The notes beneath the pieces are model-generated. The model was not told the DNA's origin, did no database searches, and saw only the letters and a program-made list of their open reading frames with translations. A stretch of DNA of 64,000 bases from Eledone cirrhosa (Eukaryota): NCBI GenBank assembly GCA_964016885.1, contig OZ024745.1:101804001-101868000 (forward strand), written 5' to 3'. Below are positions 5,993 through 63,903 of the stretch, piece by piece. Both the position numbers and the translations under genes were made by a program. Position 1 is the first letter of the stretch. The number at the start of each line of letters is the position of its first letter.

Positions 5993-6968
5993 TATAATAT
6001 ATAGAGGGGATTTCAGGTGGTTTGGTGTCAAAAGGATTAAACCTGTTGTTCAGTTCAGGCAGATATTGTGCAGTTATTGTTTTAATTCTAGATTTTAAGT
6101 GAAAGGTGTGAGAAGAATATTTTGACATCTGCACCTGATTCTCTTACAAAGAGAATATATTTTATTTTTCATTTAATAACATGTTTTGATTTATTTGTCC
6201 ATTTTTCTTCTTTTCTTCTTTGAGAAATTCTATAGAACTAATATTTTAAAGTTATGGTTTGTCTGTAATTGTTTTCACTAGCTAACACATACCCTCTCTC
6301 TCACTCTCTCACTCTCTCTCTCTCACACACACATACACACACACAAAATCATTCCATCAATATCATCATCATCATACTTATATTTTCCATGCATCCATGG
6401 ATTAGACAGGTCATCACATTCTGAGCTCAGATGTGTCAGGTGACTGCATCTTTTTCATACATTCCATTTTTGCAAGGTTTCTATGGCATGATACAATTCC
6501 TAATGCCAATTATTTCACAGTCTCTAAAGTCTGTCTCAAGCCTGGAGGTTCTTCTGGCTGATGCTTATCCCGGTTTCCGGACAGGATGTTAGCACATCGC
6601 AGGGTTAAACCCACAGCTATAGGCTGGTACTCATTTTCAGCTGAGAATACTGAAACAACATGAAATGAAGTATTTTGCTCAGGAACAAAACACGCAACTG
6701 AGCCCCGGATCTAATATACTTACCACAAAGTCACATGCCTCATAGCATGTTCTATGTGCATTTTATCGTGACACAACCACTACCACATGAGAAGGTGGAC
6801 TGGGTGCTTTTTATCATATCAACATGACTACCCATGTTTTTTTTCTAGTGAAATATTCAATATTAGTTTTAAAATTTTTACCCAGTATATATCTTTCTTT
6901 CATTTGTGAGATAACTACTATGTTAAAGCTTTATTCCGGACTACGTAACTCTTATTTCTATATTTCAG

Positions 6969-7110
6969 TGAAGATTTCACTATTCCAGAACTACCATATG
7001 GACAAGAACTGGTCATTAATATCAAGACTACCTGGGGTGATAAACATTATGTAGGACTCACTGGAATTGATATTTTTTCACAAAAGGGTGAACCTGTCAC
7101 TGTCAAAAGA
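6969..7110 (+). CDS. KATNIP: KATNIP/KIAA0556 internal exon A (DUF4457 repeat)
   Basis: tttcag|T...AAAAGA|gtaagt. Translates EDFTIPELPYGQELVINIKTTWGDKHYVGLTGIDIFSQKGEPVTVKR, matching the recalled human KIAA0556 segment FKIPVLPYGQRLVIDIKSTWGDRHYVGLNGIEIFSSKGEPV. Missing from the ORF track because it has no start codon. Confidence 0.95.
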
Positions 7111-7138
7111 GTAAGTGATACTACTTCTACTCATGTCT

Positions 7139-7424
7139 TTAAATCTTTTGATACCAAACCACCTGAAATTGACTTGGGTGTATGTTTGGACCCTTTCATG
7201 ACTGCATTCCTAATGAAATACCTCTATTTTAATTAATTGATGAAGAATTTTGAGGGATTTATGAAAATTATTATTTTATTACTAAGAGAGTAACTTAATG
7301 TAAGAAGATTCTTATATAAAATTATGTTGGAATATTTTAATTTAAATTGGAAACCTTTAAAATGGGTGGTTTTATTTCATAGACCCAGAGCCGGTTTAGG
7401 CCAGGTTAGTAACTAAAGAGTTAA
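7139..7424 (+). mobile_element. Old piggyBac-type MITE family B
   Basis: Decayed TTAA-ended element (CTTTTGATACCAAACCACCTGAAA...AAAGAGTTAA); relatives at about 29280-29771(-), 55695-56076 and 6010-6040(-). Confidence 0.6.
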
Positions 7425-16600: not shown

Positions 16601-16937
16601 AAAGTATTTGATGGATATATATATTCACATTTAGTATTATTCTGAAATGGCTGTACTGATTTGCAAATAATTAGCACTCGTATTAGTAATTAATTAAGAT
16701 ATATAGTAAGAATTGCACTAGCAGCCAAAGTGGATGATAAAGTTATATCTATAAAATAGTGTGTTACTGAGATATTTATGTAGGTATGTGTGTGTGTCTG
16801 TGTGTATATATATATATAAATAGTGTATTTTGCAATACACTGTATGCTTAATTAAAAGCATTTCGAAGACCTTACGCTATTGTTTTAGAGTAGTGATAGT
16901 CTCACTTACTTTAATTTTCAGCAAACAGAGGGCATAA

Positions 16938-16982
16938 AGCTGACAGAGCTCTGTTTCGCACTTTTTGGTGCTTATCAAAGCT
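16938..16982 (-). ncRNA. Type I hammerhead ribozyme, U3-A8 core variant
   Basis: AGCT TTGATAA GCAC CAAAAA GTGC GAAA CAGAGCTCTG TC^AGCT. Stem III is the perfect palindrome ACAGAGCTCTGT; stem I is extended by the ATTTTCAGCAAACAG helix; predicted cut between 16942 and 16941. Confidence 0.85.
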
Positions 16983-17256
16983 AAGTACTCCGCCTGTTTG
17001 CTGAAAATCATGAATGTTTGATTCTTATAGAATTCTAGTAATAATCAGGAACTGATTATACAGAGAGGTTGCCGGTCAAGCAGAAATTTAAAATTAGAAT
17101 TGGTGCTCTGAAATAGCGATATATATATGAATGTATATATAATGTATTTTGTAATACACTGTATGCTTAATTAAAAGCATTTCGAAGACCTTACGCTATT
17201 GTTTTAGAGTAGTGAAAGTCTAACTTACTTTAATTTTCAGCAAACAGGGGAGATAA

Positions 17257-17301
17257 AGCTGACAGATCTCTGTTTCGTACTTTTTGGTGCTTATTAAAGC
17301 T
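17257..17301 (-). ncRNA. Second hammerhead copy, probably inactive (G5A)
   Basis: AGCT TTAATAA GCAC CAAAAA GTAC GAAA CAGAGATCTG TC AGCT. Confidence 0.7.
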
Positions 17302-17619
17302 AAGTACTCCGCCTGTTTGCTGAAAATCATGAATGTTTGCTTCTTATAGAATTCTAGTAATAATCAGGAACTGATTATTACTAGAACCAAAAAGTGCGAA
17401 ACAGAGTTCTGTCAGCTTTATGTCCCCTGTTTGCTGAAAATTAAAGTAAGTGAGACTGTCACTACTCTAAAACAATAGCGTAAGGTCTTCGAAATGCTTT
17501 TAATTAAGCATACAGTGTATTGCAAAATACACTATATATACATTCATATATATATCGCTATTTCAGAGCACCATTTCTAATTTATATATATATATATATA
17601 TATATGATGGTTGCAAACT

Positions 17620-24211: not shown

Positions 24212-25710
24212 TCCAACCCTTGCAAGTAGGGGAAAGCGGACGTAAAATGATGATGATGATGATGATGATGATATAGACAATGAACTGAATCATAGAGTTG
24301 CACTTTACCACAGGCATCTTGCTGTGTGTGTCAGCATCAGTGATTTACGCATTTAACACTTACTTAACTTGTAGCTATGAAAGTTACACTTAAGCTGTAT
24401 ATGTACCTGGCTCACTGCTGTGCCTTTTTCTAGATTATGCTGTCAAAGGTAGTAATGGAATTATTACACTCGGTTTACAGAATAACTTCACAGCAGTGGA
24501 AACTATCATACGAGACTCTACCTATGTATATGTCTTTTTTTTTTTCTCTCTGTGTGTATGTATGTGAATGTAAATAAAAAGTAGATTGATTCTCTGTCTA
24601 TTTCAATGAAGAGTGTTCTAGTTGTTTGTTCAACTGAACTATCGAATCATTGAATTAATGCATAAGCAATATCACAATGAAAAGTGAGTCTAGCATTCTT
24701 TTGGTAGAGGGGAAGCAGTGATGCATTGGTTTATTGCATTGTCTTTTTTTGTGTGTGTGGGGATCATGTGTCACTTTGTGTAGCATAAAAGCTAGCTGTG
24801 CCATGCCACTGAATATACTTTTCATGAAATCTTCAGTTACAGTTAGTATAACACTGTGTATGGCAAAGCTGTTAATTTATGAAAAGGATCAGGACCAATG
24901 TGAGGTTCTGAAACTACAATAAAGGTAACTCATCTCAGAAAGCAGTAACTTCAAATAAAAACTACACAGAGGAGACATGGACTCTCTAAGCTGTAGTGAA
25001 GGCAATAACTCTCAATAAAAGTTACAGTGTAGAGCTTTCACTTGTGTTGTTGGCACAATAAGATGCACCCAGTCCATGCTGTAAAACGGTTGGTGATAGG
25101 AAGGGCATCCAGCCAATAAATCCATGCCTAAACTATGAATCGACAAACAGGCAAACATGGACATAACCACTATCAGACATATACGTGGCCATCCCAGTTT
25201 TGAAATAATGTATTACTCTATTTTCAAAGGAACATTAGATAATGCTATATCCGTTAATGAATCTCTCTCTCTCTCTGTTGTGGAGATGTAACCGATAGAT
25301 AGTACTAGCAACTGGAAAGACCAACGAAAATGTTGTTTCCTCGGTCTGATTTGACGATAGTCGATTGAGATATACATATATATATATATAATCATCATCA
25401 TCATCATCATCATCATTTAACCTCTGCCCAGGTCTTTCTTGGTCTACCTCTACTTCCTTTCACTAGTATTTCCTGTCACTTCTTCACCCAACAATCATTG
25501 TTCATGCACAACACAATATATAAAGACCTGGACAGAGGTGGTGAAAGCTGACTTCAAATCATCTAGACTCACAGAGCTGATGACAAAGAATAGCAACATG
25601 TGGAGAGATGCCATGCTGTGAAGAATTCAGCCAACCCATGCAAGCGTGGAGAAGCGGACATAAACACGATGATGATGATGATATTAGATGTATTGTTTTT
25701 ATATTTGCAG

Positions 25711-25860
25711 ACAATCTTGTTCAGTGTTGAAGAAGAGATACTGGAGGCTGTGTCCAGGAACGATGATGCATATGAAGGTGAAACTCTTGAAGATATTAGC
25801 TGGGAGGATGAGATTGGCAACCAGCGTCCCACCACTGCAGCACAGGCCAATGAAGAACAG
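25711..25860 (+). CDS. KATNIP: KATNIP internal exon D
   Basis: tttgcag|ACA...GAACAG|gtaaaa; 150 nt. TILFSVEEEILEAVSRNDDAYEGETLEDISWEDEIGNQRPTTAAQANEEQ (human TILFTTDDDILEAI...RPSTA). Confidence 0.93.
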
Positions 25861-25914
25861 GTAAAAATATTTGTAGAATTATTTATGAATATTTTGTTTA
25901 TGATCATGGTAAAT

Positions 25915-27839
25915 GTTCATCTAGCTTTGACTCAACAAGATACCTACGTCTCTTTGCCAGACACGTAGCAAAGACTTTACCAGGGACACTTAACAAGGAT
26001 ATCCCTTTATAATTGGAACAATCTCTCTTGTCTCTCTTTTTGAAAATTGGGATGATCTCTTTGATTGCCATTGTGTAAGTGTTGTTTCTGAGATCCAGGC
26101 CACCCAACACACTCGAGTCAACCAGAGAATACCTTCTCTATTTAAGTTTTTTAACATCTTGAGCTGAATTTCATCCTCTTCTCTGGGCTTGTCACATTTG
26201 AGCTCTTTAACTGTACTTGTTATCTCAGCCCCAGAGAGATTAGTCATTGCTCCCAGATGCACCTTGTGTACATCAAAATATACTGTTGTGACTGTGTTTA
26301 GGAGATCAACAAAGTATTCTCTCCACCTCATGAGATTGCACCTTTCTGGAGAGAGGAGAACACCAGATGTGTTCTTGATAGTAGGGGTAGAGGAGGACTT
26401 CTTACAAAGTCAGCATGTGGTCTGTCAGAACACTTTATTTGCTGACCTGAAGTCAGGTTCCAGCTTAAGTCCAAAGTGTTCACATGTCTTAACTTTGGAC
26501 ATCTTTACTGTCTCTGTTGCAACTTTTCATGCCTGCTAGTACTGCAAGTGTAAGAAGGGGGACTTATTTCTAAGCCAAGCTTTGTAATCACCCTTCTTTG
26601 TTTGGGTGGCATATTTGACCACTTGTTTGAATAAAAGAGTCCTCCAACCACCCAGTCCCACACCAAGCTGCTTTCACCTGCAAAATGTTAACTGCTGAAG
26701 TAGAAACTGCCGAGTTGAAGAATCCCCACTCCGTTTCAACATCCTCAGTTTGTTCATGGAATTCTCTAAATTTGGATGCAGTAGTATCCGGAAACCTGTT
26801 CCTGACTTCTCTATCTGCCAGTGCTTCCCACTTTATTATGTAGTTTCCGGTTGCAGATAACTAGAGCAGTGTGGTTTTCACCCCGGACACAGCACAGCTG
26901 ACCAAATATTTACACTGAGGAAGGTCTTTGAGAAATTGTGGAAGTATTCTTGTTTCATAGAGCTTGAAAAGGCATATCATTGCATTCCACAGTACTTGTT
27001 GATCAATGGACAGCTTCTTGCTGGCCTGCTGTCTCTAGTATTTGCTTTCAGATAAAACCTTTCAATATGGGTGTCACCTCTCCTGTTCATAATCTTCATG
27101 GACAGGATTGACATGCACAACCAGGCTGGAAGTGATAATGATATAGATCTCCATGCACTTCATAGGTTTGATGCTGAGTGCTGCACAGCAGGAATGAAAA
27201 TCAGTGCTGTGAAGGCTGAGACACTCATCCTCTCAAGGATGCCTGCACAGTGCAGTCATATGAGTGGACATTTACTGAAGCAGGGAGGGAAGTTCAAGTA
27301 TCTCGGGGCCGTGTTCACAAGTGATCGAAGGCAAGAGGCTGAATTAAATACAAGAATTGTAGGACATGGTGCTGTAATATGCCAACTTCGGAAGTGGGGA
27401 GATAGGTGTAAAAGCCAAACTCGCTATCTTCAATTCAGTATTCATGAATCTTGGGTAATGCCCAAAAAGATACGATTACAAATACAAGCAACTGGAATGG
27501 GGTTCCTCTGAAGTGTTTTTTGGGTAGCTTTACTCAATAGAGTACATAGCTTGGAGATTAGAGAGTCACTCTAAGTAGAACCACTACGGCTCTGATATAT
27601 TGGGCATGTGGTTAGAATGTTTCAAGAAAGTATTGCTGAAAAGCTTTTCTGGGCAAAAACCAACCAGTAAGAGACCTAGGTGTAGATCCCAAGCAAAATG
27701 TTTGGATAACATCCATGAGCTCGCTTGTTCTAACTAGATCAATTGGAGATGGTTGCTTCGGACATATCCCACTGGAAGGCATGCTTTATGACTCTGCCCC
27801 ACGACTCTCCCAGGAATATGTGATCAAAGAAGAAGATAT
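25915..27839 (+). mobile_element. RTE LINE with inverted 5' segment (25915 to about 26860 on minus; about 26862-27839 on plus)
   Basis: The minus part ends ...SLLSVPGKVF...VESKLDEH and the plus part starts EQCGFHPGHSTADQIFTL; (GAA)n tail; candidate TSD TGGTAAAT. Confidence 0.88.
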
Positions 27840-34610: not shown

Positions 34611-35384
34611 GAGAAGGGGTAGGGAAATGCTAGTTGCAGGCTATTGTCCTCTACATGTTGTTTCATCCTGTACATATGGGAAGTTTTTTTTTTGGGGGGG
34701 GGGGTCGTCTGCAGCACAGCATAATGCCAGAGAACTTGATCCTGAGTCATCTCCTTTGAGAGGTTTAATCATTTTTATATATTATGATTTGTGTTTGTTT
34801 GTGTGTGTGTAAGAATATATGTGAAGTTTGGAATTTATATTGAATAGAACCAAATGATATAATCAAAGCAGTTTAATCCCACCACGACTAAGCTAAAATA
34901 CATTTTTAGGCATATGGTGTAAATTAGGATTCATCTCCATTTTCAAATAAAACATTTTGTTCTAACTAGTATTTTTGTATATTGTTTGTTAATATAACTT
35001 TTCCTTGTTTTTACTATCCAGATCCATACTTCTGTACATTAAAAAATGTTATTTTATTTTAAAAATCATCACGGGAAATGGTTTTTCTTGCAAGTACAAT
35101 CCACTAACACCAGTTTTATCTCAAATATTTCATTTTGTTGTATGCAAACTTTTCCTCTGAGACAATGTTATTGGAACAGATTATCATATTTAAAAGAAAT
35201 GCACATACACACTCACACACACACACACTTTCATACAAATACACACGATTATATATATATATGCGTATATATATACACACACACACATGTGTGTGTTTGT
35301 GTATATATATATACGCATATATATATAATCTGTGTGTATTTGTATGAAAGCATGTGTATGTATGCATATATATATATATAAATA

Positions 35385-36221
35385 TATATTATCATAAATT
35401 ATGTCTACAGAATTATTAGATAAACAAAATATATACTCCATTTCCTCTGCCAAACAGCACAATCAACCATATAAAAAATCAATTATACTAAGCCATAAGG
35501 ATAAAAGCTCCTATGAAGAAATCTCCGACAAACAAACGAAAGTGGGTACTTCGCGTTATCCACAGCAGGTTATTTATCCAACATTTCGACAGCATGCATA
35601 AATCGACCAAGTACATAATTAACCATATGCCATTCGGTGTAAAATCAAACATAGAAGAACTGTGTACATACCGTAACTATCTCTACCATGGTTTCATCCG
35701 TATTTTTAGATATCCTATTAATAGGAAATCCATTGAGTTCGGAATCATCAGGAGATAAACTCAAAAATAGACACTTAGTATTCCAAGCCGATCGCGCCAA
35801 AATTGGATTAAAAATGGCTAAGAATCACACTATGGCCGTGGTCAAGTTGGAACGAATGTGATTGGCTGTTGACGGCGTGTAGGCCTCTCGCTCGAAAGCG
35901 CAGCCAAATATCGCCAAATTTAATCTCAACCTTACGGGAGATTATTAAATATAGAGATTTACATATACATAAATTTATATATGTTACAACCAGTCACTTT
36001 TTAGCTCTATGAAGAATTAATAAATTAAATACTCAGAGCAATATATTATTATAAATCATGTCTACAGAATTATTAGATAAACAAAATATTTTGTTTATCT
36101 AATAATTCTGTAGACATGATTTATAATAATATAGTGCTCTGAGTATTTAATTTATTAATTCTTCATAGAGCTAAAAAGTGACTGGTTGTAACATATATAA
36201 ATTTATGTATATGTAAATCTC

Positions 36222-36235
<14 letters not shown>
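35385..36235 (-). mobile_element. Non-autonomous Penelope-type element: 657-nt unit with terminal redundancy and a 282-bp palindrome
   Basis: ATGTCTACAGAATTATTAGATAAACAAAATAT at 35401 and 36058; palindrome 35947-36228; TA tracts on both sides. Confidence 0.85.
35678..35757 (-). ncRNA. Type I hammerhead ribozyme with extended stem II
   Basis: TATCTC CTGATGA T TCCG[internal loop + TCCTAT/ATAGGA hairpin]CGGA T GAAA CCATGG TA^GAGATA; 6-bp stem I; stem III is the palindrome ACCATGGT. Confidence 0.88.
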
Positions 36236-41062: not shown

Positions 41063-41499
41063 GAAGGCTCATGGCTTAGTGGTTAGAGCATTGGGCTTGC
41101 AATCGAAAGGTTGTGAGTTCAATTCTCAGACCGGATGATGTGTTGTTTCCTTGAGCAAGACACTTTATTTCACATTGCTCCAGTTTACTCAGCTGTAGAA
41201 ATAAGATGATAGGACTGGAGTCCCTATCATTCCACTGCAAAGTGGTCGTGGAGGTGCCACGACAAAGAAGCACCCAGCCCACACTGTAAAGTGGACGTGT
41301 AGGCGCCATGGAAAAAAAGCACCCAGCACTCACTGTAAATGAGGTTGGTGTTAGGAAGAGCATCCCGCTGTAGAAATCAAGCCAGAATCAGGTCCCGTAT
41401 GAGCAAGACAAGGTCAGCCGACCGGACACTGCCCACAACAGGACAACCCGTCTAACCCATGCTAGTGTGGAAGAACTGACGTAAAACGGGGATGATGAT
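41063..41499 (+). mobile_element. tRNA-derived SINE family 1 (long variant)
   Basis: A/B boxes, internal CACTGTAAA..AAAAGCACCCAGC units and the alternative AACCCATGCTAG tail. Confidence 0.9.
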
Positions 41500-51504: not shown

Positions 51505-51599
51505 AGAAAAATGGAGTGCTGCGTGGTTGCACATGGGTTACATATGAATAAAAGTAGTCCTTCATCAGTGATCTTCCAACCTTCATTGGTATTTCATAT

Positions 51600-51865
51600 G
51601 TACTTGGATATATATATATATATTTATTTATATATATATATACATGGATATATATATTTATATATAAATATATATATATATATATATGGATATGTGTATA
51701 TATATATATGGATATGTATATATATATATATATATGGATATGTATATATATATATATATATGGATATGTATATATATATATATATGGATATGTATATATA
51801 TATATATATGGATATGTGTATATATATATATATGGATATGTGTATATATATATATATATATATGG

Positions 51866-51897
<32 letters not shown>

Positions 51898-51976
51898 GGA
51901 TATGTGTATATATATATATGGATATGTGTATATATATATATATGGATATGTGTATATAAATATATATATGGATATG

Positions 51977-52014
<38 letters not shown>

Positions 52015-52338
52015 TGGATATGTATATATATATATATATATGGATATGGATATGTATATATATATGGATATGGATATATATAAATATATATATATATGGA
52101 TATGGATATGTATATATATATGGATATATATAAATATATATATATATGGATATGGATATGTATATATATATATATATGGATATGGATATGTATATATATA
52201 TATATATGGATATGTATATATATATATATATATGGATATGGATATGTATGGATATGTATATATATATATATATATGGATATGGATATGTATATATATATA
52301 TATATATGGATATGTATATATATATATATGGATATGTA

Positions 52339-52393
<55 letters not shown>

Positions 52394-52400
52394 ATATGTA

Positions 52401-52455
<55 letters not shown>

Positions 52456-52628
52456 ATATGTATATTTATATATGTATATATATATATGGATACATATATT
52501 TATATATGGATATGTATATTTATATATGTATATATATATATGGATACATATATTTATATATGGATATGTATATATATATATGGATACATATATTTATATA
52601 TGGATATGTATATATATATGGATATGTA

Positions 52629-52665
<37 letters not shown>

Positions 52666-53170
52666 ATATGTATATTTATATATGTATATATATATATGGA
52701 TACATATATTTATATATGGATATGTATATATATATGGATATGTATATTTATATATGTATATATATATATGGATACGTATATTTATATATATATATATATG
52801 TATATTTATATATATATATATGGATATGTATATTTATATATATGGATATGTATATATTTATATATATGGATATGTATATATATATATGTATATATGGATA
52901 TATGTATATATATATGTATATATATATATATGTATATATGGATATGTATATTTATATATGGATATGTATATTTATATATGTATATATATGGATATGTATA
53001 TTTATATATGTATATATATATATATGGTTATGTATATTTGTATATATATGGATATGTATATTTATATATATAAATGTATATATATATATATGTATATATA
53101 TATATGTATATTTATATATATATATGTATATATATATGGATATGTATATTTATATATATATATGTATATT

Positions 53171-53263
<93 letters not shown>

Positions 53264-53264
53264 G

Positions 53265-53333
<69 letters not shown>

Positions 53334-53750
53334 ATATATATATATGGATATATATATGGATATATATATATGGATATATATATATGGATGTATATATGTA
53401 TATATATATATGGATACGTATATTTATATATATATATATGGATACGTATATGTATATATATATATATGGATACGTATATGTATATATATATATATGGATA
53501 TGTATATTTATATATATATATATGGATATGTATATTTATATATATATATATGGATATGTATATTTATATATATATATATATATATGTATATTTATATATA
53601 TATATATATATATATGTATATCTCTATATATATATGTATATATATATATATATGTAGATGGATATGTATATTTATTTATATATACATATACATGGATGTG
53701 TGTGTGTGTGTGTATGGATATATATGTGTATGTATACATATGTATATGAA
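51600..53750. repeat. About 2.1 kb compound (TA)n microsatellite punctuated by GGATATG and TATTTA motifs
   Basis: Directly visible. Smaller tracts at 375-478, 2204-2470, 46840-47025, 51350-51505 and 63660-63930. Confidence 0.98.
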
Positions 53751-56162
53751 TATATTTTGTTTATTATTATTTATAGTGATATTTCAAAGATTGTTTGGAA
53801 GTTGATACAAAGGGATATGACTTCCACTAATGAACACGACTTCTGCTAATGGCCTCTGTTTGAAAGCAATTAGTCAGTCAGATTTCATGTGATATATGTG
53901 TGTGTTTGTGTGTTCATGCATGCATATGTATATATATTTGTATGTGCATAAATGTTTGTGTGTGTTTATATATGTATAAATGTGTATACATACACATACA
54001 TAAACAAATAATAGACATTTGAAATTGTAATGGTGACCTGTTTGCACCAACTTATTAGTTGTTTAGGTTTTCTTAAAGAGGTTTACTGCAGCAAAAAAAA
54101 AAATCTAAATTTGTGTCTGCTTGAAGAAACCGAGTGAATTTTTAATAGCATGACAATTCTTTTAATTGATGGTACTCAGCGTATGGCATAATAGTTCAAA
54201 TTTTTTAGTTATAATTCTTCCCCAGTTAACTTAAATGTTTGGACAATTGGTTAGTACTTAATAAACCAAGGATAAAAGTAATGTTTATTTTAAAGAAATT
54301 ATTCAAAACAAAGCCTTGTAGCTGACTTTTGTACTATATTTGAGGAAAATAATTAGTAATTACTGTTTTTAATTATTCTACAAACAAAAGTTAATTAATA
54401 AAACCATTGCTAAAGTATCCAAACTAATAGCTATTGAAATGGGTGCTCATTATTGAATATATGTTGTACAGTTAGCTCTATAGATTAAACATTGCTTTCA
54501 CAACCATATGGTTCTAGGTTCAATCTCACTGAGGGGCAAGTCCATAACTCCAGCTGGGCCATTACTTTGTGTGTAGAATTTTCTTGATAGATAGTGTAAA
54601 GAAACTCATCATATGTGTAATTGTGTTTGTGTTTGTGTATCTGTCTATGCTTATGTTTATCTATTAATGTTTGACACATACCACCACCATCAGTATCATT
54701 GTCATTTTAATCTCAACTTTCCCTGCTAGCAAGGGTTAGACGGGTCTATATAGACCAAGTCCGTGCTGAAGCTGTGTCACTGATCTCCCTAGGAAGCCAG
54801 GAATCTGTGTTTTGTTTATGTACGGTAGCTTTAAAAAAAAAAACTGTTGTGTCGCAAAGGCAATTTAGCTACTATATGAAATATAGGTTAATAAAATAAA
54901 TATCAATCTGAAATGAATTCAATCTGAAATATCAATCTTAAATGGCCCCACTGATGGCTCCACTGACTGAAAACAATAAAAAATAGAATCTAAAAGAGAA
55001 TTTATAGTGAGCATTATCAAATCAATGGTTTATGATTTAGGCGCAAGGCCAACAATTTTTGGGAAGGAAAAAGTCAATTAAATCAACCCCAGTGCCTTAC
55101 TGGTACTTTATTCTATCAACCTCATAAGGATGAAAGGCAAAGCTAACCTCGGCAGAATTCGTACTCAGAATGTAAAGGGCCGTAACTCTATGCCTCAAAG
55201 CATGTTGTCCGATGCTCTACCGGTACTGCCAATCCACCACCTTGCATTATCAAATTAATAATGAGCTTATTCTGTATTAAGTTCACTACTTAGTCTTTGT
55301 TCCTATTTTAGTTTACTTACATTCCTGCTTTTTTAGCTAAGGTATATTGATCACACTGCATATTTCACTCTTGTAAAATATCACAGCTTTGTGTCTCATC
55401 TGACAGAAACCAGTATTACCTGTTCAGATGTTCTCTAATGCTCAATGTGTTGTTAACAGAGTTTCCTCAATAGTATTTGACATTGAAGAACATTGCCGAT
55501 CCTCGGCCTCGACGACTGGCCTCTCGTTCCGCCTTCCTCTTGCAGAGGTCAATTTTATTTCCATTTATATTTTAATAAACGACTGTATTGTTACTGCAAT
55601 GCTACAGTGATATTCATGACATTATTTTAAAGTTTCTCTTTTTTTTTTAGTTAATTTTTAAAAACATTTAATAGATACAAATATTTTTTTTCCTCTAAAA
55701 CCCTTTCATGACCATATTTCTAATGAAATACATTCTTTTTAAATTAATTAATGAAGAATTTTGAAGGATTTACTAAAGAATTAATTATTTCATTAATAAA
55801 CTGGTAATTATTTCACTAATAAACTAGTAACTTAACATATGGTTAATATAAAATTATGTTGAAAAACTTTATGTTGCAAAGCATGGTGTCTGAAGTTCTA
55901 CCGATACTGCCAAAACAACACTGCCCTATGTGAGCTAAATCCTTTACCATGAAAATACAATAGTAAATATAGAGTAATGTAAATGCTAAAGGGTTAAATA
56001 TGAATCCTTTAAAATGGGTGATTTTGTTTCATAGAATCAGAGCTGATTTTTGTCAGGCTCATATCAAAAGGGTTAATCTGATTTTGTTTGGCTATGACAG
56101 AAAAGAACAGGAAAGCATCTATTTTTTTTATTTTACTTCTAGATTACTTAGAAAGCTAGCAT

Positions 56163-56699: not shown

Positions 56700-56877
56700 G
56701 TTTAAAATTAAATTTCACAGTAACCTGGGGAGACCTTCATTATTTAGGCTTGACAGGAATAGAGATATTTAGTACAGACAAAGAGACGTTACCAGTTAAT
56801 GTGAATATGCTCAGTGCTGAACCATCCGATGTGCATAGTCTACCTGGCCATGAAAACGATGAAAGAACATTAGACAA
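56700..56877 (+). CDS. KATNIP: KATNIP internal exon F (next DUF4457 repeat)
   Basis: tttattccag|GT...GACAA|gtaagt. The split codon T|GT gives Cys: (C)LKLNFTVTWGDLHYLGLTGIEIFSTDKETLPVNVNMLSAEPSDVHSLPGHENDERTLD(K) (human CLQLNFTASWGDLHYLGLTGLE). Confidence 0.95.
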
Positions 56878-58037
56878 GTAAGTAATTCTGTCAGCTAAAT
56901 ACACCTTTGAAAATGCATTTAAATTTTCAATGTTTTAATTATTTTATGTTCCAATTCACTGCTGTATATACATCTCATACATTGAACCTCATGCTGTTCC
57001 AGAAATATTGCAGAAAATAAGGTGGTGGAATTATGAGAAAATAAGTTGTTTATTGAGTTGATCATGAAATATTACTTAAAGAAAATCAAGAAATATTCTT
57101 TGTGAAAGTTTATTCTAAATTCTGACCAAAAACTGAATACTTGTCTGGTGATAACTTATTGAATGATAAACAATTAGGGAGGGGCAAACACTGGTTGTCC
57201 CTCTTGGATGAATCTAAACTAACCCTAAAAACTTGCCTGGGACTCAAGCAAACATGGAAGACTTGGCTTTATAACTTGATCAGCTAGAAATAATGACTAA
57301 ATCTTTCTCAAATCACAACTTTCTCCCTTAAAAAACTCAGAATACATTGAATAATGTAATCAACTATACACAATTGTAAAAAGATGAGATGGTTACAGGC
57401 CTTTGATTTCAGTACAGATTGACCTGGGGCTTAATAACAACAACAACAGTAGCAACTTGCTTACACCACTAAAGTTTTTTGTGATGATCTTTAAGCTTAT
57501 TCATTTATTTTGTGGTCCCCGAACTGCTGTTTTCTCCCACAAAATCAGAAAGATAGCAGCCCAACTCTGTAAGGAGCCCCCTGAGGTGGAGTGACTGTTG
57601 CAGTGAGTGTGACTGGCCATTCTCTACAGCAGTGCCTTCGTCATTCTGTTCGTGAGGCATAGCTGAAACATACTGCTCAGATTGAGGTGTAGAGGTAGAA
57701 TCTGTTGCCCGCTCCACTTTCCCTTGCTTCCATTGCTTAATTTCTTTTACTATTTCTTCTGTTCTATCTCTTGCCTTTTATTTTTTGTTTCCATATTGCC
57801 ATTTCTATTGTACAGTTTTTATCACATATTCACTTGTAATTGTACATTAATAAATAAGAGAAATGTGAAAGAAACTAATTAGATGTATGAAAGGATAAAA
57901 CAACTGCTAAGATATATAATTCCTCAGAAGAAAAATAAATATTGTAATTATAGCTATTACTACCTGACAGAAAACATTTTATGATATTTCTCGCTATCTA
58001 AATGTTTGCCATATATGACTACAACTACTAATATACG

Positions 58038-58072
<35 letters not shown>

Positions 58073-58174
58073 AGCAATATCCGTAGGTAACAGTACTCAG
58101 TCTTTATATATTATTCTAACCCATGCTTGCGGTGAAGAAGGACGTTAAACGAAGATGATGATGATATATATATA

Positions 58175-58682
58175 TATTTCGTTTCTGAATTTGTTTAGCA
58201 AGTTTCTTTATCTGAAATCGTGTGTTGAAACCGATATTGTTATACTTTGGGATGGTCATGTTGAGTGGAACAGCAACATCACAACTTACAATTAAGGACA
58301 AAATGAAAACACACACACACATAGAACAAACAACCAACCAGTAACATGTAAATAAACAAATAAATAAATGAACATAAACACACACAGGCACCCGGATGTG
58401 GCGCATGCGCAGACTGAGCACACAACACACACACACAAACAAAATGGCGTAGGACAGAACAAAGGAGAGGCACAGAAACAAAGAAAGGAATCCCCAGTCA
58501 CTGAAGAGGTCACAGAGTGTGTGACGAAAGAACTATGACTATATATAAACAACTATCTGGTTGTGGAACCAACCAACCAACCAGAAATTTATAAATTTAT
58601 AAATATATAATAAATTGAAGTAAAAGCAACTGGTGCATGTGTTTCTTATTGGCAACATGACCCTCCCAAAGTATAACAATAT
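58175..58682 (+). mobile_element. Penelope-type terminal repeat, copy 2, with inverted head
   Basis: Inverse of 36252-36670; 30-bp inverted ends at 58234-58263 and 58653-58682; TA flanks. Confidence 0.85.
58496..58540 (+). ncRNA. Minimal hammerhead ribozyme, sense to the KATNIP pre-mRNA
   Basis: AGTCA CTGAAGA G GTCAC AGAGTGT GTGAC GAAA GAAC TA^TGACT, identical to the 36394 copy. Confidence 0.78.
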
Positions 58683-58868
58683 ATATATATATTTTAATAT
58701 AGAAAAGCTTCTACAGGACTAGAACTGTTTCATTCGGAATAACTTATATATATTCTTGGTATATTTTGTATTAGTTAATCAACCAAAATATGTATAACAG
58801 CGATTGTGTGAGAAATAAATGAGGAAAATTCTAACCTACTGACTTCTAATTCATTGTTACACACACAC

Positions 58869-58931
<63 letters not shown>

Positions 58932-59062
58932 TACACGGGTGTGTATAGAAGATTATATTAATAAAAGGAATTCCAACTTTGTCTGATTTACTCGTTTTAT
59001 TTACAATCCTTTAAAATTATAATGATATTATAATGAAATAGTATGGTAGAATATTAAATATA

Positions 59063-59103
<41 letters not shown>

Positions 59104-59104
<1 letters not shown>

Positions 59105-59693
59105 TAAGCATGTACACGCACATACACACATGCATACAGACATACAACAACATGTATATATATATATACATATACATACATGCACACATATACACATGCA
59201 CGCATGGACTCACCGAACATCCACTACAATGCTCGGCGTGTTTGCAAACAAACATTCCGAACCAAGCCGTACAGCGTCTAGCAACCATCGCCGCTCACCC
59301 ACTCAACACTGACAAAGGAACGCTGTACTAGTTTCAAGCTTATTAGCTATCATCAACAATGTATACCTTCCTGCCAGAAGGTTGAACGTTTGAAAGTATA
59401 TACTTTCCTTATGCATATTAACGGCTGAGCAGCCTAATTGGCATATCGAGTGAGTTAATCGGCCGGGGTACCGAAAACGATAAACGGAAAAAATGAAATG
59501 AAATTTCATTTCTCACTCCCAGCACGGCTGTTACCCAAACATAAGCATGTACACGCACATACACACATACATACAGAGATACAGCAGCATGTATATATAT
59601 ATATACATACATGCACACATATACACATGCATGGACTCACCGAACATCCACTACAATGCTCGGCGCGTTTGCAAACAAACATCCCGAACCAAG
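59104..59693 (-). mobile_element. Non-autonomous Penelope-type element, 437-nt unit with about 155-nt terminal redundancy
   Basis: ATAAGCATGTACACGCA...CCGAACCAAG at 59104-59265 and 59541-59693; TA tracts on both sides. Confidence 0.82.
59321..59361 (-). ncRNA. Minimal hammerhead ribozyme (C3U, imperfect stem I)
   Basis: CATTG TTGATGA T AGCT AATA AGCT T GAAA CTAG TA^CAGCG; stem III is the palindrome ACTAGT. Confidence 0.72.
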
Positions 59694-60638
59694 TATATAT
59701 ATAAGCATATATATATATATATATGAGCAGTAATGGTGAATATTGCTTGGGAATGAAATAACTCAGGCAGAGGACGAATATATTATTTGAAACAGAATAT
59801 TTATATTCAGTGCATATGTGTGTATGTATGTACAATTATGTCCATAATTGTTTTCTTGCTTTTATCTGTAATATAGTAGTTGGGCAAATAGAGATTGATA
59901 AAATAAGTAAATCGAAATAATTACTGTGATCAGTAAGATTGTTGAAACTGTTGAAGCTGTTGTCCTTGTATGGCCAGAAATTAGTATGTTGACCAAAACG
60001 AATCAAATATCTGATTCATTTTAAATATCATTGTCCATCTAATTTTGTTATATGAACAAAATTAAATGAAATTCAGCAATTGAAAGTGAATTTTTAAAAA
60101 AGGTTCCTTTAGAATTTAAACCAGCCATATCCGGCCAGAATTCTCTCACCTCTTTCTGTTCAAACTGGCTGTAACCAGCCACTCATACTGATGTTAAGGT
60201 ATTGTTCTCAAAATAAATAATATCAAAATCTCATAGATTCGATATTATGTGAGGTAAAGCCTTTACTATGAAAATACAATAGTATATATAGAATAATGTA
60301 AATGGTAAAGGGTTAATGTGTTTACAAACAATATTGTCATACCTGGTTTCTGTCTGTCATCCAATTAAGTATATGGTTGGTATTATTAGACAAACTTTAA
60401 CAAGGTGAACTTCACATATGATGTGACTGCAATAGTAAGAGGAACCAGCATCAATATATTTGGATGTTGCATCCCTACGTTCTCAGGCATATGTCTTTGT
60501 GTGTGTGTGTGGCGCATTTCAACCTACATAATTAGGAAGAGAGAGAGACATTGGTGTAGACTCTCAAAGAAAGTACTCCATTTAAAGCAAGTTCTTTGTG
60601 CAGGTTGTAAAATAACAACAATCATTATTATTTGGAAG

Positions 60639-60922
60639 GGCGGTGGATTGGCAGTATCGGTGGAGGGTCGGACGCCATGCTTTCCAGCATAGTTATGTCC
60701 CTTTACGATCTGAGTTCAAATCCCGCCGAGGTTGACTTTGCCTTTCATCCTTACGGGGTCGATAAAATAAAGTACCAGTAATGAACTAGGTAATTGCTGG
60801 CCTTGTGCCTAAAGTAGAAACAATTATTATTTGGATTGGCAGTATCGGTTGAGCGTCATTCACTATGCTCTACATCTTAGAGTTATGGCCCTTTACGTTC
60901 TGAGTTCAAATCCCACCGAGGG
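60639..60922 (+). mobile_element. SINE family 2, full copy followed by a tandem partial copy
   Basis: GGCGGTGGATTGGCAGTATCGG...GTAGAAACAATTATTATT, then a second head from 60832. Confidence 0.88.
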
Positions 60923-61816
60923 ATTGGGAAAAATGACCATAATAATAGTTAAAGTACTGCTACTGAGGAATCAAGCTATGCATCTCAGTTTAATGGATAA
61001 TGTACACAGCCAGCATTCAAGTGATGCAAGGTTTGATTTTTCTCTCCCCAGGGCTACTTTACCCAATTTTTTCAACTATTATTTATAGTGATTGACAATA
61101 TTGGGATGCAGGAATTTCAACTTTTTCCAATGCTTCTTAAGTCAACTGCTATGTTTATATCTCTAGCTACAGGCTTAAATTCTTCTAAAAACAGGGGGTT
61201 TGTGGCCAGTAGCAGTTGCCTGGCATCCTCACTTCCAGTCACCTCTGTCTACTATTGTCTGACTTTAGTGGAACTTTACTCAATTTTCTCAAGTATTATT
61301 TTTAATGATCGACTACTATCATGATCATTCATATGGGACATCCATAGACATAGGCGCATATATTTGACATATATGTCAAATATAAATTGGAGTATTTTTC
61401 GAAAGATTTCCAGTAAATTGAGTTATGATTTATTCTTCAGTAACAAAAACCTTAAATTATTGAATTTCACATTTTATTTTGAAGCTTCTAGTGTTCTATG
61501 ATTTCTATAATATTTGTGTATTCTTTTTATATCTATTCATTAATTTGTCTTCTTCTATTAAATTCATTTTAAATAGTATTTATTTTTCCATTACTGAGTG
61601 TTTTTGTTTGCTATAATATGTTCCTTTTTGTTTCAATCTTTTTCTTGGAAAGAACTCATTGAAATGTGTGTGTAACATATTGTTAACACCCAATGCTGGT
61701 ATACAGACACACATCTAGACTGGAATGGGATTTTAATATATATATATATATATATGTGTGTGTTCATATTTCAGATAGATAGATAAATATATTGATAAAT
61801 GATTGGATATATATAT

Positions 61817-62315
61817 AGGTTGGTAGGGATTCTGTGGTGGAAACAAGAACAAACGAGGAGTGTAATCAAAAAAGAGAAATAGGACGAAGGTAAACAGTTA
61901 CAAAAGGATTTAATCCACGTATTAACAATTGTTTCATCAGAATTTCAGTCCATTATTGCTACACTATGTCATAATAGGCAATCAAGAAAGATACTGTGAC
62001 ATCCGAATTTTCAAAATACAAAGTTCATTTCAACTTTGTATTTTGAAAATTCGGATGTCACAGTATCTTTTTTCATTGCCTATTATGACATAGTGTAGCA
62101 ATAATGGACTGAAATTCTGATGAAACAATTGTTAATACGTGGATTAAATCCTTTTGTAACTGTTTACCTTTGTCCTATTTCTCTTTTTTGATTACACTCC
62201 TCGTTTGTTCGTGTTTCCACCACAGAATCCCTACCAACCTGTTGAGTCACCTTAACGTATGATGATAACTTTCCTCACAACTTGTTCTACCAAGCTTTGG
62301 AATATTCCTAATTAC

Positions 62316-62320
<5 letters not shown>
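61817..62320. mobile_element. Fold-back Penelope-type insertion: 209-bp arms, 6-nt loop and tail, in (TA)n
   Basis: Arms 61817-62025 and 62032-62240 with about 4 mismatches; tail 62241-62320. Confidence 0.9.
62037..62139 (+). ncRNA. Type I hammerhead ribozyme, U3-A8 core, long stem II (mirror copy 61918-62020 on minus)
   Basis: TGTATT TTGAAAA T TCGGA[60 nt hairpin insert]TCTGA T GAAA CAATTG TT^AATACG; stem III is the palindrome ACAATTGT. Confidence 0.7.
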
Positions 62321-62355
<35 letters not shown>

Positions 62356-62358
<3 letters not shown>

Positions 62359-63016
62359 TGCTTATCCAGATATCGCTTTTCCAAAATTCGATTTACCGGA
62401 CGGCTATTTCTATACTACCTCCGGATGAGGAGGACTTAATTTTGGCAGACGGACAGATCCGGGCAGCATTTCTTCCAGCGAACGTTACGTCACTTATTCA
62501 GCCAATGGACCAGGGAGTTTTGGAGACACTAAAGCGGATTTACAAAAAACAATTGCTGCGGGATTTGATCGGAAAAGGGGACACGGGAATGATTCCATTT
62601 TTACGTGCGATAAACATGAGGGAGGTGGTTGACCATTCAGCTGTTGCGTGGAAATGGTAGCGGGAAATGGTAGAGGACCGACGAGCTTTGGCGCGAAAAC
62701 AATCTTCTATTTATTCATTTTAAAAAAAGTACTAACTTTTTATGGTTTGACTCAATTCAGTTTTACCAAGTTTTTAATTATTCTTATGTTTGTTTAATTA
62801 ATTTTCTTATAAATTCTAGCTGTTCTTTTGTTATTCTAATAAACTTTCTTTACTTAGCATTTGTCCTTTATTTTGACTAAAAGAAGCCAAAACATTAGAA
62901 ACCACGAGCATTATGTAACAATGGGATTTTAGAATTCACTTATCAGGATATTTCACTTAACCAGATCTTTTTCTAACTGTTTGGTTTTGACCGTCCGGAT
63001 AAGCGAAGATTCACTG
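62356..63016 (+). mobile_element. Internally deleted pogo/Tigger DNA transposon
   Basis: TA|CAGTG..CTTATCCAG ... CCGGATAAGCGAAGATTCACTG|TA. DDE fragment DGQIRAAFLPANVTSLIQPMDQGVLETLKRIYKKQLL. Confidence 0.9.
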
Positions 63017-63731
63017 TATATATATATATTAATGTTTCTACTTTTGACACAAGGCCAGCAATATCCCCAGTGTATTACTGGTGCTTTATTTTATTGAGCC
63101 CATAATTATGAAAGGCAAAGTTAACCTTGGCAGATTTCAACTCAGAACGTAAAGGGCCATAACTCTATGCTGCAAAGCATTGTGTCTGACACTCTACCGA
63201 TACTGCCAAAATAGATAGATAGATGATTTAATTTATATATTTATATATATATATATATATATATACAGAGATAGGGAGAGAGAAATAGATAGAAAGATAG
63301 ATGGTTAGATATATATATATATAGAAAGAGAGAGCGGGGGAAGAAATAGATAGAAAGATATTTTTTTATTAAATATTTGAGATATTTATTTCTATTCATC
63401 ATTTTAGGTTATCCTGGGAAATACATTTTCTGTTGTGATATTTTCATAAGGCTATGTGTTAACATATACTCCAATACTCACAGCCTTTATTAGAGAACTA
63501 AACTAGTTACTATTGAGAAATACATCTAAGAAATTCTGCGTGTGTGTATATATATATAGATATATAATCAAAATGAGCATAATGAGGACAATATATACAA
63601 CTACACATTTGCGTATACATATGTACATTCACACATGCAAACACACGCATCAAATAAATATAATATATATATATATATATATCAATATATATATATTATA
63701 TTTATTGTATTTATATATTATATATATATAT

Positions 63732-63779
<48 letters not shown>

Positions 63780-63817
63780 ATGTATATATATATATATATA
63801 TGTATGTATATATATTG

Positions 63818-63903
<86 letters not shown>

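Follow-up and report, generated by a model that had tools for sequence, protein, structure and literature searches.

Penelope-like elements (PLEs) of the Hydra clade are defined, in the parts of PMC8557442 available, by a set of ORF motifs (RWK, DKT, CxCX5C and CxxC/CxH, with a C-terminal GIY-YIG domain), and they target (TA)n. The same parts describe hammerheads near the 3′ ends of these elements, with a U before GAA and often a U at H17; the Hydra hammerheads in its File S2 are all C3-G8 with a stem II of ~10–25 nt, and the file gives its longest stem II region, ~52 nt, for a plant element. Inverted 5′-truncated arms and tails are typical of PLEs. The available text of PMC8557442 states a tail length of 30–40 nt and reports an inverted copy with a mirrored hammerhead in the Hydra family Penelope-13_HM. 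Minimal hammerheads of metazoan PLEs, among them a U3-A8 variant in Cercyon elements of Schistosoma, lie in the pLTR and have a palindromic helix III suited to dimers; in the available portions of PMC4209133, helix II is 7–8 bp with a conserved G10.1-C11.1, and opposite-strand motifs occur 100–700 bp apart. Among natural core variants, U3-A8 covariation and a U10.1-U11.1 mismatch both support cleavage, and the part of PMC3088659 available describes neither the two together nor a 70–90-nt retroelement stem II.

Two further systems bear on how such elements insert. For PAc Poseidon, a PLE of another clade, the sections of PMC11167929 at hand report that both strands of AT-rich DNA are cut and extended in vitro, that two RT start sites flank the tail and that uncleaved RNA is the template; they describe no hotspot of 5′ junctions at the ribozyme. 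Penelope of Adineta vaga has head-to-head inverted pLTRs, a one-sided tail and junction palindromes, and its inverted pLTRs are explained by self-priming in the portion of PMC3846280 available (PMC2377424, PMC6765202 and 10.64898/2026.07.22.740005 were further sources, also available in part). What hammerheads do for PLEs is stated as unclear in the literature.

We analysed a 64,000-nt window of the Eledone cirrhosa genome with a palindromic insertion at 61817–62320. The sequence-only reading had described a 424-bp fold-back with 209-bp arms, each with a hammerhead, and both the arms and the hammerhead letters were as stated when checked by arm comparison and a descriptor scan. The arms (61817–62025 and 62032–62240; 209 nt each) are 98% complementary, with four differences in 209 sites (62071, 62074, 62171 and 62211), and the 6-nt spacer between them (62026–62031) is element sequence. 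The 424-bp palindrome is real, but it is not the whole element: the right arm extends 80 nt past it, to 62320, and (TA)n flanks both ends (left target remnant 61807–61817, right tract 62319–62355). The main arm (62026–62320, + strand) is the 5′-truncated 3′ end, or pseudo-LTR, of a Hydra-clade PLE, copies of which continue upstream into an ORF with RT and GIY-YIG parts. The second arm (61817–62025, − strand) is, by arm alignment, an inverted copy of 62032–62240. Its outer end lies ~48 nt further 3′ than the family norm, and the one-sided tail (62241–62320, + strand) is 80 nt here versus ~130 nt in most two-arm copies; both tail lengths exceed that stated for PLEs. Family copies share one terminal base, directly before (TA)n. 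This is ordinary PLE insertion geometry, and the window copy is a dead-on-arrival stub of 295 nt plus an inverted arm. Right after the (TA)n tract, 62355–63017 has short inverted ends that enclose a fragment of a DDE_1 transposase (E=3e-12); this is likely a Tigger/pogo-type DNA transposon with an internal deletion. Below, positions along the element are given as q, with q1 at window position 62032, the start of stem I at q6, U3 at q12, the predicted cut at q102/103 and the element end at q289.

A first look for the 289-nt right arm across the 3.0-Gb genome gave 571 candidates, of which the 40 that were scored are 96–100% identical, and a 22-nt tag from the 3′ end matched 284 times (control 0), which points to a young family of several hundred copies (at least 284). 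We refer to it as family A. Longer copies lead upstream into the ORF of a ~3.0-kb unit. In these copies, not in the window stub, the ORF contains RWK, ADKT, YRDD, CxCX5C, a GIY-YIG-like motif, CxxC and CxH. RWK is present and GxKF/Y absent; DKG is changed to DKT (ADKT at residue 118 of the natural ORF piece), and an unrelated DKG occurs at residue 44, directly after RWK. The CxCX5C linker, CxxC and CxH were found by regular expression, and CCHH was judged by eye to be absent from the endonuclease. A Pfam search of the ORF returned GIY-YIG only, below the cut-off (E=0.006), and no RT match. Insertions of the family sit in (TA)n, within which a target-site duplication is unreadable, and the hammerhead lies near the 3′ end as in the Hydra clade, with a U3-A8 core and a long stem II; homologous families with C3-G8 exist. 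By these motifs, the element is assigned to the Hydra clade of PLEs. A non-LTR retrozyme (tandem non-coding monomers without an ORF) was rejected because the copies are dispersed and lead into an ORF, and a MITE or DNA transposon with fixed terminal inverted repeats and fixed length was rejected because arm lengths and junctions vary from copy to copy.

The insertion lies within an intron of a gene transcribed on the + strand, which we take to be KATNIP-like. Host exons at 6949–7233, 25594–25965 and 56700–56877 (+ strand; DUF4457 matches for the first and last) precede an intron of ~33 kb that occupies 56878–64000 and continues past the window. The exons on its two sides match DUF4457 profile positions 1–57 and 57–113 and are consecutive, with GT..AG borders and consistent phase. 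The location within an intron, with the ribozyme in sense orientation, had been proposed from the letters of the window, and these matches on either side bear it out.

The type I hammerhead motif of the main arm spans 62037–62139 (+ strand; descriptor, covariation and folding). Stem I pairs 62037–62042 with 62134–62139, and the core UUGAAAA (62043–62049) is followed by a stem II flanked by U 62050 and U 62121, with its proximal part formed by 62051–62055 and 62116–62120. GAA (62122–62124), a palindromic stem III (62125–62132) and H17, a U (62133), complete the motif, with cleavage predicted at 62133/62134. The mirror motif (61918–62020, − strand; descriptor scan and folding) has its core starting at 62014 and a predicted cut at 61924/61923. 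The segment between the two core halves, the stem II region, is 72 nt, and the window copy has two near-private substitutions in it, at 62071 and 62074. Like the Hydra-clade hammerheads, the motif has a U before GAA and a U at H17, in contrast to them it combines U3-A8 with this 72-nt region. It shares the pLTR location, the palindromic helix III and the mirrored pair with minimal metazoan PLE hammerheads and U3-A8 with the Cercyon variant, whereas its helix II is long, interrupted and closed by U.U. Two other structures were rejected: an alternative core at CUGAUGA (in 62117–62123) shares bases with GAAA, lacks a partner further downstream and does not occur in sister families, and a core-blocking upstream hairpin had a pair probability <0.1 in folding. 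Just after stem I, 62140–62151 contains a conserved word with AATAAA or ATTAAA in most families, possibly a polyadenylation signal or a tertiary partner.

Folding of the isolated arm gave pair probabilities of 0.68–0.79 for stems I and II. The arm was, however, less stable than its shuffles (z=+1.63), so the folding energy alone is no evidence for a ribozyme; the monomer minimum-energy structure hides the core in a competing 3-bp extension. In line with the earlier expectation that standard models would miss the motif, an Rfam scan recovered no hammerhead, whether at the gathering threshold or at E≤10; its only matches, below the cut-off, were to generic miRNA hairpins.

The case for the ribozyme was made from sister families. 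A descriptor requiring stem I ATT/AAT, U3-A8 and a 45–100-nt spacer matched 1,749 times in the genome versus once in the reversed control, and with C3-G8 1,017 times (control 0); families of the two core types can be aligned to one another. A loose U3-A8 pattern did no better than background (6,210 matches versus 7,569 in the control) and was used only for finding families. Stem II regions are 68–92 nt across 18 representatives, three of which have ≤2 bp at the stem II base without a bulge. In 20 hand-picked rows of ~7 families, 94.6% of cells were paired, seven of 13 pairs showed two-sided change, and the 3-8 pair was C-G in ten rows and U-A in ten with no mismatch, under search patterns that imposed three stem I pairs, the outer stem III pairs and both core states (U3-A8 or C3-G8). 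None of 500 shuffles reached the covariation score, in a control that ignores relatedness, and slid controls were far lower. The covariation check across copies that the sequence-only reading had proposed thus shows that stems I–III covary in sister families (20 rows; a 13-row set agrees). Across diverged families the core letters are invariant while N7, H17 and stem II vary, and position 3 and position 8 change only as a pair. The NUH triplet is kept, H17 being U or A in family A and C in others, with patterns that required H. In family D, stem I is 4 bp long and the centre of stem III is not palindromic. The RT to which this family is linked is 67–72% identical to that of the window family, and RT links for families E, F, G and H are weak or missing; diverged endonuclease matches can be linked to their own hammerheads only above ~45% identity.

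Among 97 family A copies, no variant was common to four or more copies in the 20 columns of the core, stem III and 10.1/11.1. H17 varies between U and A (A in 16 of 97), and one stem column has a variant in four copies. The density of rare mutations is alike across columns, as expected after insertion, so the within-family data say little about the ribozyme.

On these comparisons the motif is very likely a genuine hammerhead, a large-stem-II variant for which self-cleavage is predicted. The earlier view that its core is unusual for such elements does not hold, as U3-A8 and U10.1-U11.1 have each been published; GUU and mirror hammerheads are also published. No report of a 70–90-nt stem II class was found in the literature covered, the paper on a dimer-cleaving PLE variant (PMC5785218) and the supplements of PMC4209133 lying outside that coverage. 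About 2,800 matches of the 68–92-nt stem II class in one genome escape Rfam, and descriptors built for a short stem II therefore undercount these ribozymes. The families also supply a natural C3-G8/U3-A8 pair within one scaffold. In family B (L037/L038), which makes up about a quarter of rows with this stem III, the U3-A8 core and the same stem III go with a 31-nt stem II; this family is tied to a Hydra-like RT ~44% identical and has no evident stem I beside the cut site. The stem III pattern as such gave 10,374 hammerhead-like matches in the genome (control 29), many of which form mirror pairs placed head to head, in some cases with the join precisely at the first base of the core.

A contrary reading is that the hammerhead has decayed, can no longer cleave and is kept as a fold that binds protein. 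It would fit the weak predicted stability, the lack of a junction peak at the cut site (see below) and the finding that catalytic mutants of another PLE still transpose in vitro. Decay does not, however, readily leave core letters invariant while N7, H17 and stem II vary, or let position 3 and position 8 change pairwise only, and we consider this reading distinctly unlikely. The genuine hammerhead that we prefer is predicted to be a slow cutter that depends on a dimer or a protein, like other metazoan PLE hammerheads.

We then asked how the two arms are made, using the first 100 of the 284 tag matches (95 loci, 102 main arms). Inverted arms beside the 5′ junction were common in these loci. For the 39 inverted arms that end inside the fetched DNA, 33 outer ends fall at q153–163, equivalent to 62184–62194 (+ strand), which would be a second RT start site, unused in the window copy. 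The remaining outer ends were at q127 (two), q288 (three) and elsewhere (one), and six further arms ran off the locus; the window's own outer end, q209, is not among the 39. In contigs from three DNA-like runs of one sample, loose ends fall at mirrored 61863–61871, followed by (TA)n. Thirty-five two-arm insertions were counted, defined by an outer end at q127 or q150–165. In ten of these the inverted arm extends beyond the main arm on the 5′ side but does not have the main arm's tail, so neither arm contains the other, and such non-nested pairs cannot be produced by fold-back from one cDNA. Fold-back, the earlier name for the palindrome, is thus not the general mechanism; it may make some copies, the window copy included. 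In 11 of the 35, both junctions lie within 20 nt of each other, which is compatible with either route.

The arrangement resembles that of PAc Poseidon, with cutting and extension on both strands and a tail delimited by two RT start sites. The element endonuclease would cut both strands in (TA)n; one end would prime at the element 3′ terminus and the other 80–130 nt further in, leaving a one-sided tail, and both cDNAs would run toward the RNA 5′ end and be joined head to head by short homologies. We read the insertion, with good confidence, as a stub in an intronic (AT)n tract with arms likely made by two RT runs from two cut ends, each stopping at the 5′ foot of the predicted hammerhead. In contrast to the account given for Adineta vaga, the non-nested arms require that some of the insertions, at least, involved two syntheses on RNA templates.

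The stops are not spread evenly. A family-wide hotspot of 5′ junctions lies at the 5′ foot of helix I (62027–62036, + strand), and the junction of the window copy falls in it. Thirteen of the 102 main arms end at q−4 to q5, against 1.43 expected per 16 nt by the 3′ flank rate (P=4e-9) or 0.63 by the 5′ flank, for a 16-nt window picked after seeing the data. The junction sequences shown for 11 of the 13 arms all differ, which indicates that these junctions are separate events. Inverted arms stop there in 7 of 35 cases, including two with a distant partner junction. Near the cut site (q95–110) we found 2 of 102 main-arm and 5 of 35 inverted-arm stops, none at q102/103. In family D, 12 of 63 junctions lie 4–10 nt upstream of U3 (6 of 23 plus 6 of 40, the latter by eye) and three in the next 60 nt, a count that leaves out seven rows fetched by choice, four of which had hotspot junctions. 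In family H, which has C3-G8, 6 of 26 junctions were within 7 nt (by eye, family J rows left out), and in the short-stem family C many junctions lie, by informal inspection, within 30 nt of the core. That the fold point lies just upstream of the ribozyme (a 5-nt spacing), as had been noticed in the window alone, is thus not chance (13 of 102 versus 1.4 expected, replicated in D and H). From family to family the hotspot keeps to the 5′ foot of helix I; the modal q−4 of family A fits, by eye, a short extension of helix I, whereas the folding program pairs these bases otherwise. Seven of eight tandem 5′ repeats that reach the hotspot ran through it, making it a partial stop and not an absolute RNA end. 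Our literature searches found no report of a junction hotspot at a PLE ribozyme.

By the time it reaches the hotspot the polymerase would already have unwound the helix, so that an RNA 5′ end is the simplest reading, and the hotspot likely marks where the RNA template ends. Many templates would then be uncleaved RNAs with their 5′ end at the base of helix I, set either by the folded ribozyme, with a bound protein, blocking 5′–3′ trimming, or by the start of transcription. Among the possible causes of the hotspot we favour such templates, made by exonuclease block or start site, tentatively and at a little under even chances. An intron in stem II or a splice acceptor was rejected as the cause, because junction partners differ between copies. 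An alternative, in which the hotspot is the start site of an internal promoter in the ribozyme region and the long stem II carries promoter DNA, appears doubtful. In the literature, Penelope is described as having an internal promoter in its pLTR, with Inr and DPE; in families A and D, as in some H, E, F and G copies, the modal junction falls on a TCA-type initiator-like word, and stem II of family D contains a DPE-like word. However, the initiator-like word is missing in several H subfamilies, the DPE is wrongly spaced (+27 in A, +17 in D, by eye), junctions show no consistent untemplated, cap-derived G, and long 5′ repeats pass through the hotspot. Rather unlikely, too, is hairpin self-priming, in which one cDNA stopped, folded back and was extended, so that the hotspot would reflect not the end of an RNA but self-complementary DNA: an A/T palindrome spans the core, and a 6-bp inverted repeat lies directly upstream. 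Self-priming has already been proposed for such palindromes, the sequence around 62029–62051 is self-complementary, and the near-symmetric junctions in 11 of 35 two-arm insertions agree with it; the ten non-nested insertions do not. Hotspot junctions also occur without an inverted arm or with a distant partner junction (L011, L108, L072, L099, L081 and L126), and family H, lacking a perfect core palindrome, has the same hotspot. With a hotspot that follows helix I in three families, and no peak where the cut is predicted, the role of the fold can be tested directly against that of the cut. If template ends are the cause of the hotspot, which is less likely than not, ribozyme function in vivo would be recorded in genomic junctions by the thousand, across swaps of C3-G8 to U3-A8.

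The mirror arm had also been proposed to silence the ribozyme, allowing it to be tolerated in an intron, with the duplex feeding ADAR or Dicer. As had been expected, read-through RNA of the full palindrome is predicted to form a long duplex (−353 kcal/mol) that buries both motifs, and this, together with the intronic site, favours silencing. In the host intron the mirror arm is transcribed first, and the window copy would thus be masked. Yet 63 of 77 sampled whole-ribozyme copies, genic or not, had no covering inverted arm in the fetched DNA (14 of 77 had one), and the inverted arm is a routine product of insertion. Metazoan PLE hammerheads, moreover, cut poorly in vitro, and the four differences in 209 arm positions, two of which break pairs, are what neutral decay would give. 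An arm kept for silencing is thus very improbable, and the proposal of an adaptation is not upheld; pairing of the window ribozyme in host pre-mRNA by the earlier-transcribed mirror arm would be a by-product of insertion.

The descriptor scan of the 64-kb window returned the two mirror motifs and two other candidates. A compact U3-A8 hammerhead with 4-bp stems I and II and a 12-nt palindromic stem III runs from 16978 (− strand), and 16805–17583 is another repeat with tandem and inverted copies and relatives in several fetched loci. A canonical C3-G8 hammerhead with a 49-nt stem II and a 7-bp stem I lies at 35751 (− strand), and 35384–36232 is a PLE-like insertion with its own 290-bp palindrome (35943–36232) and relatives at loci L182 and L183. 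The window also contains a ~2.1-kb AT-rich satellite with a 50–56-nt period (51596–53755) and a tRNA-like match at gathering score (41072–41129), likely the head of a SINE.
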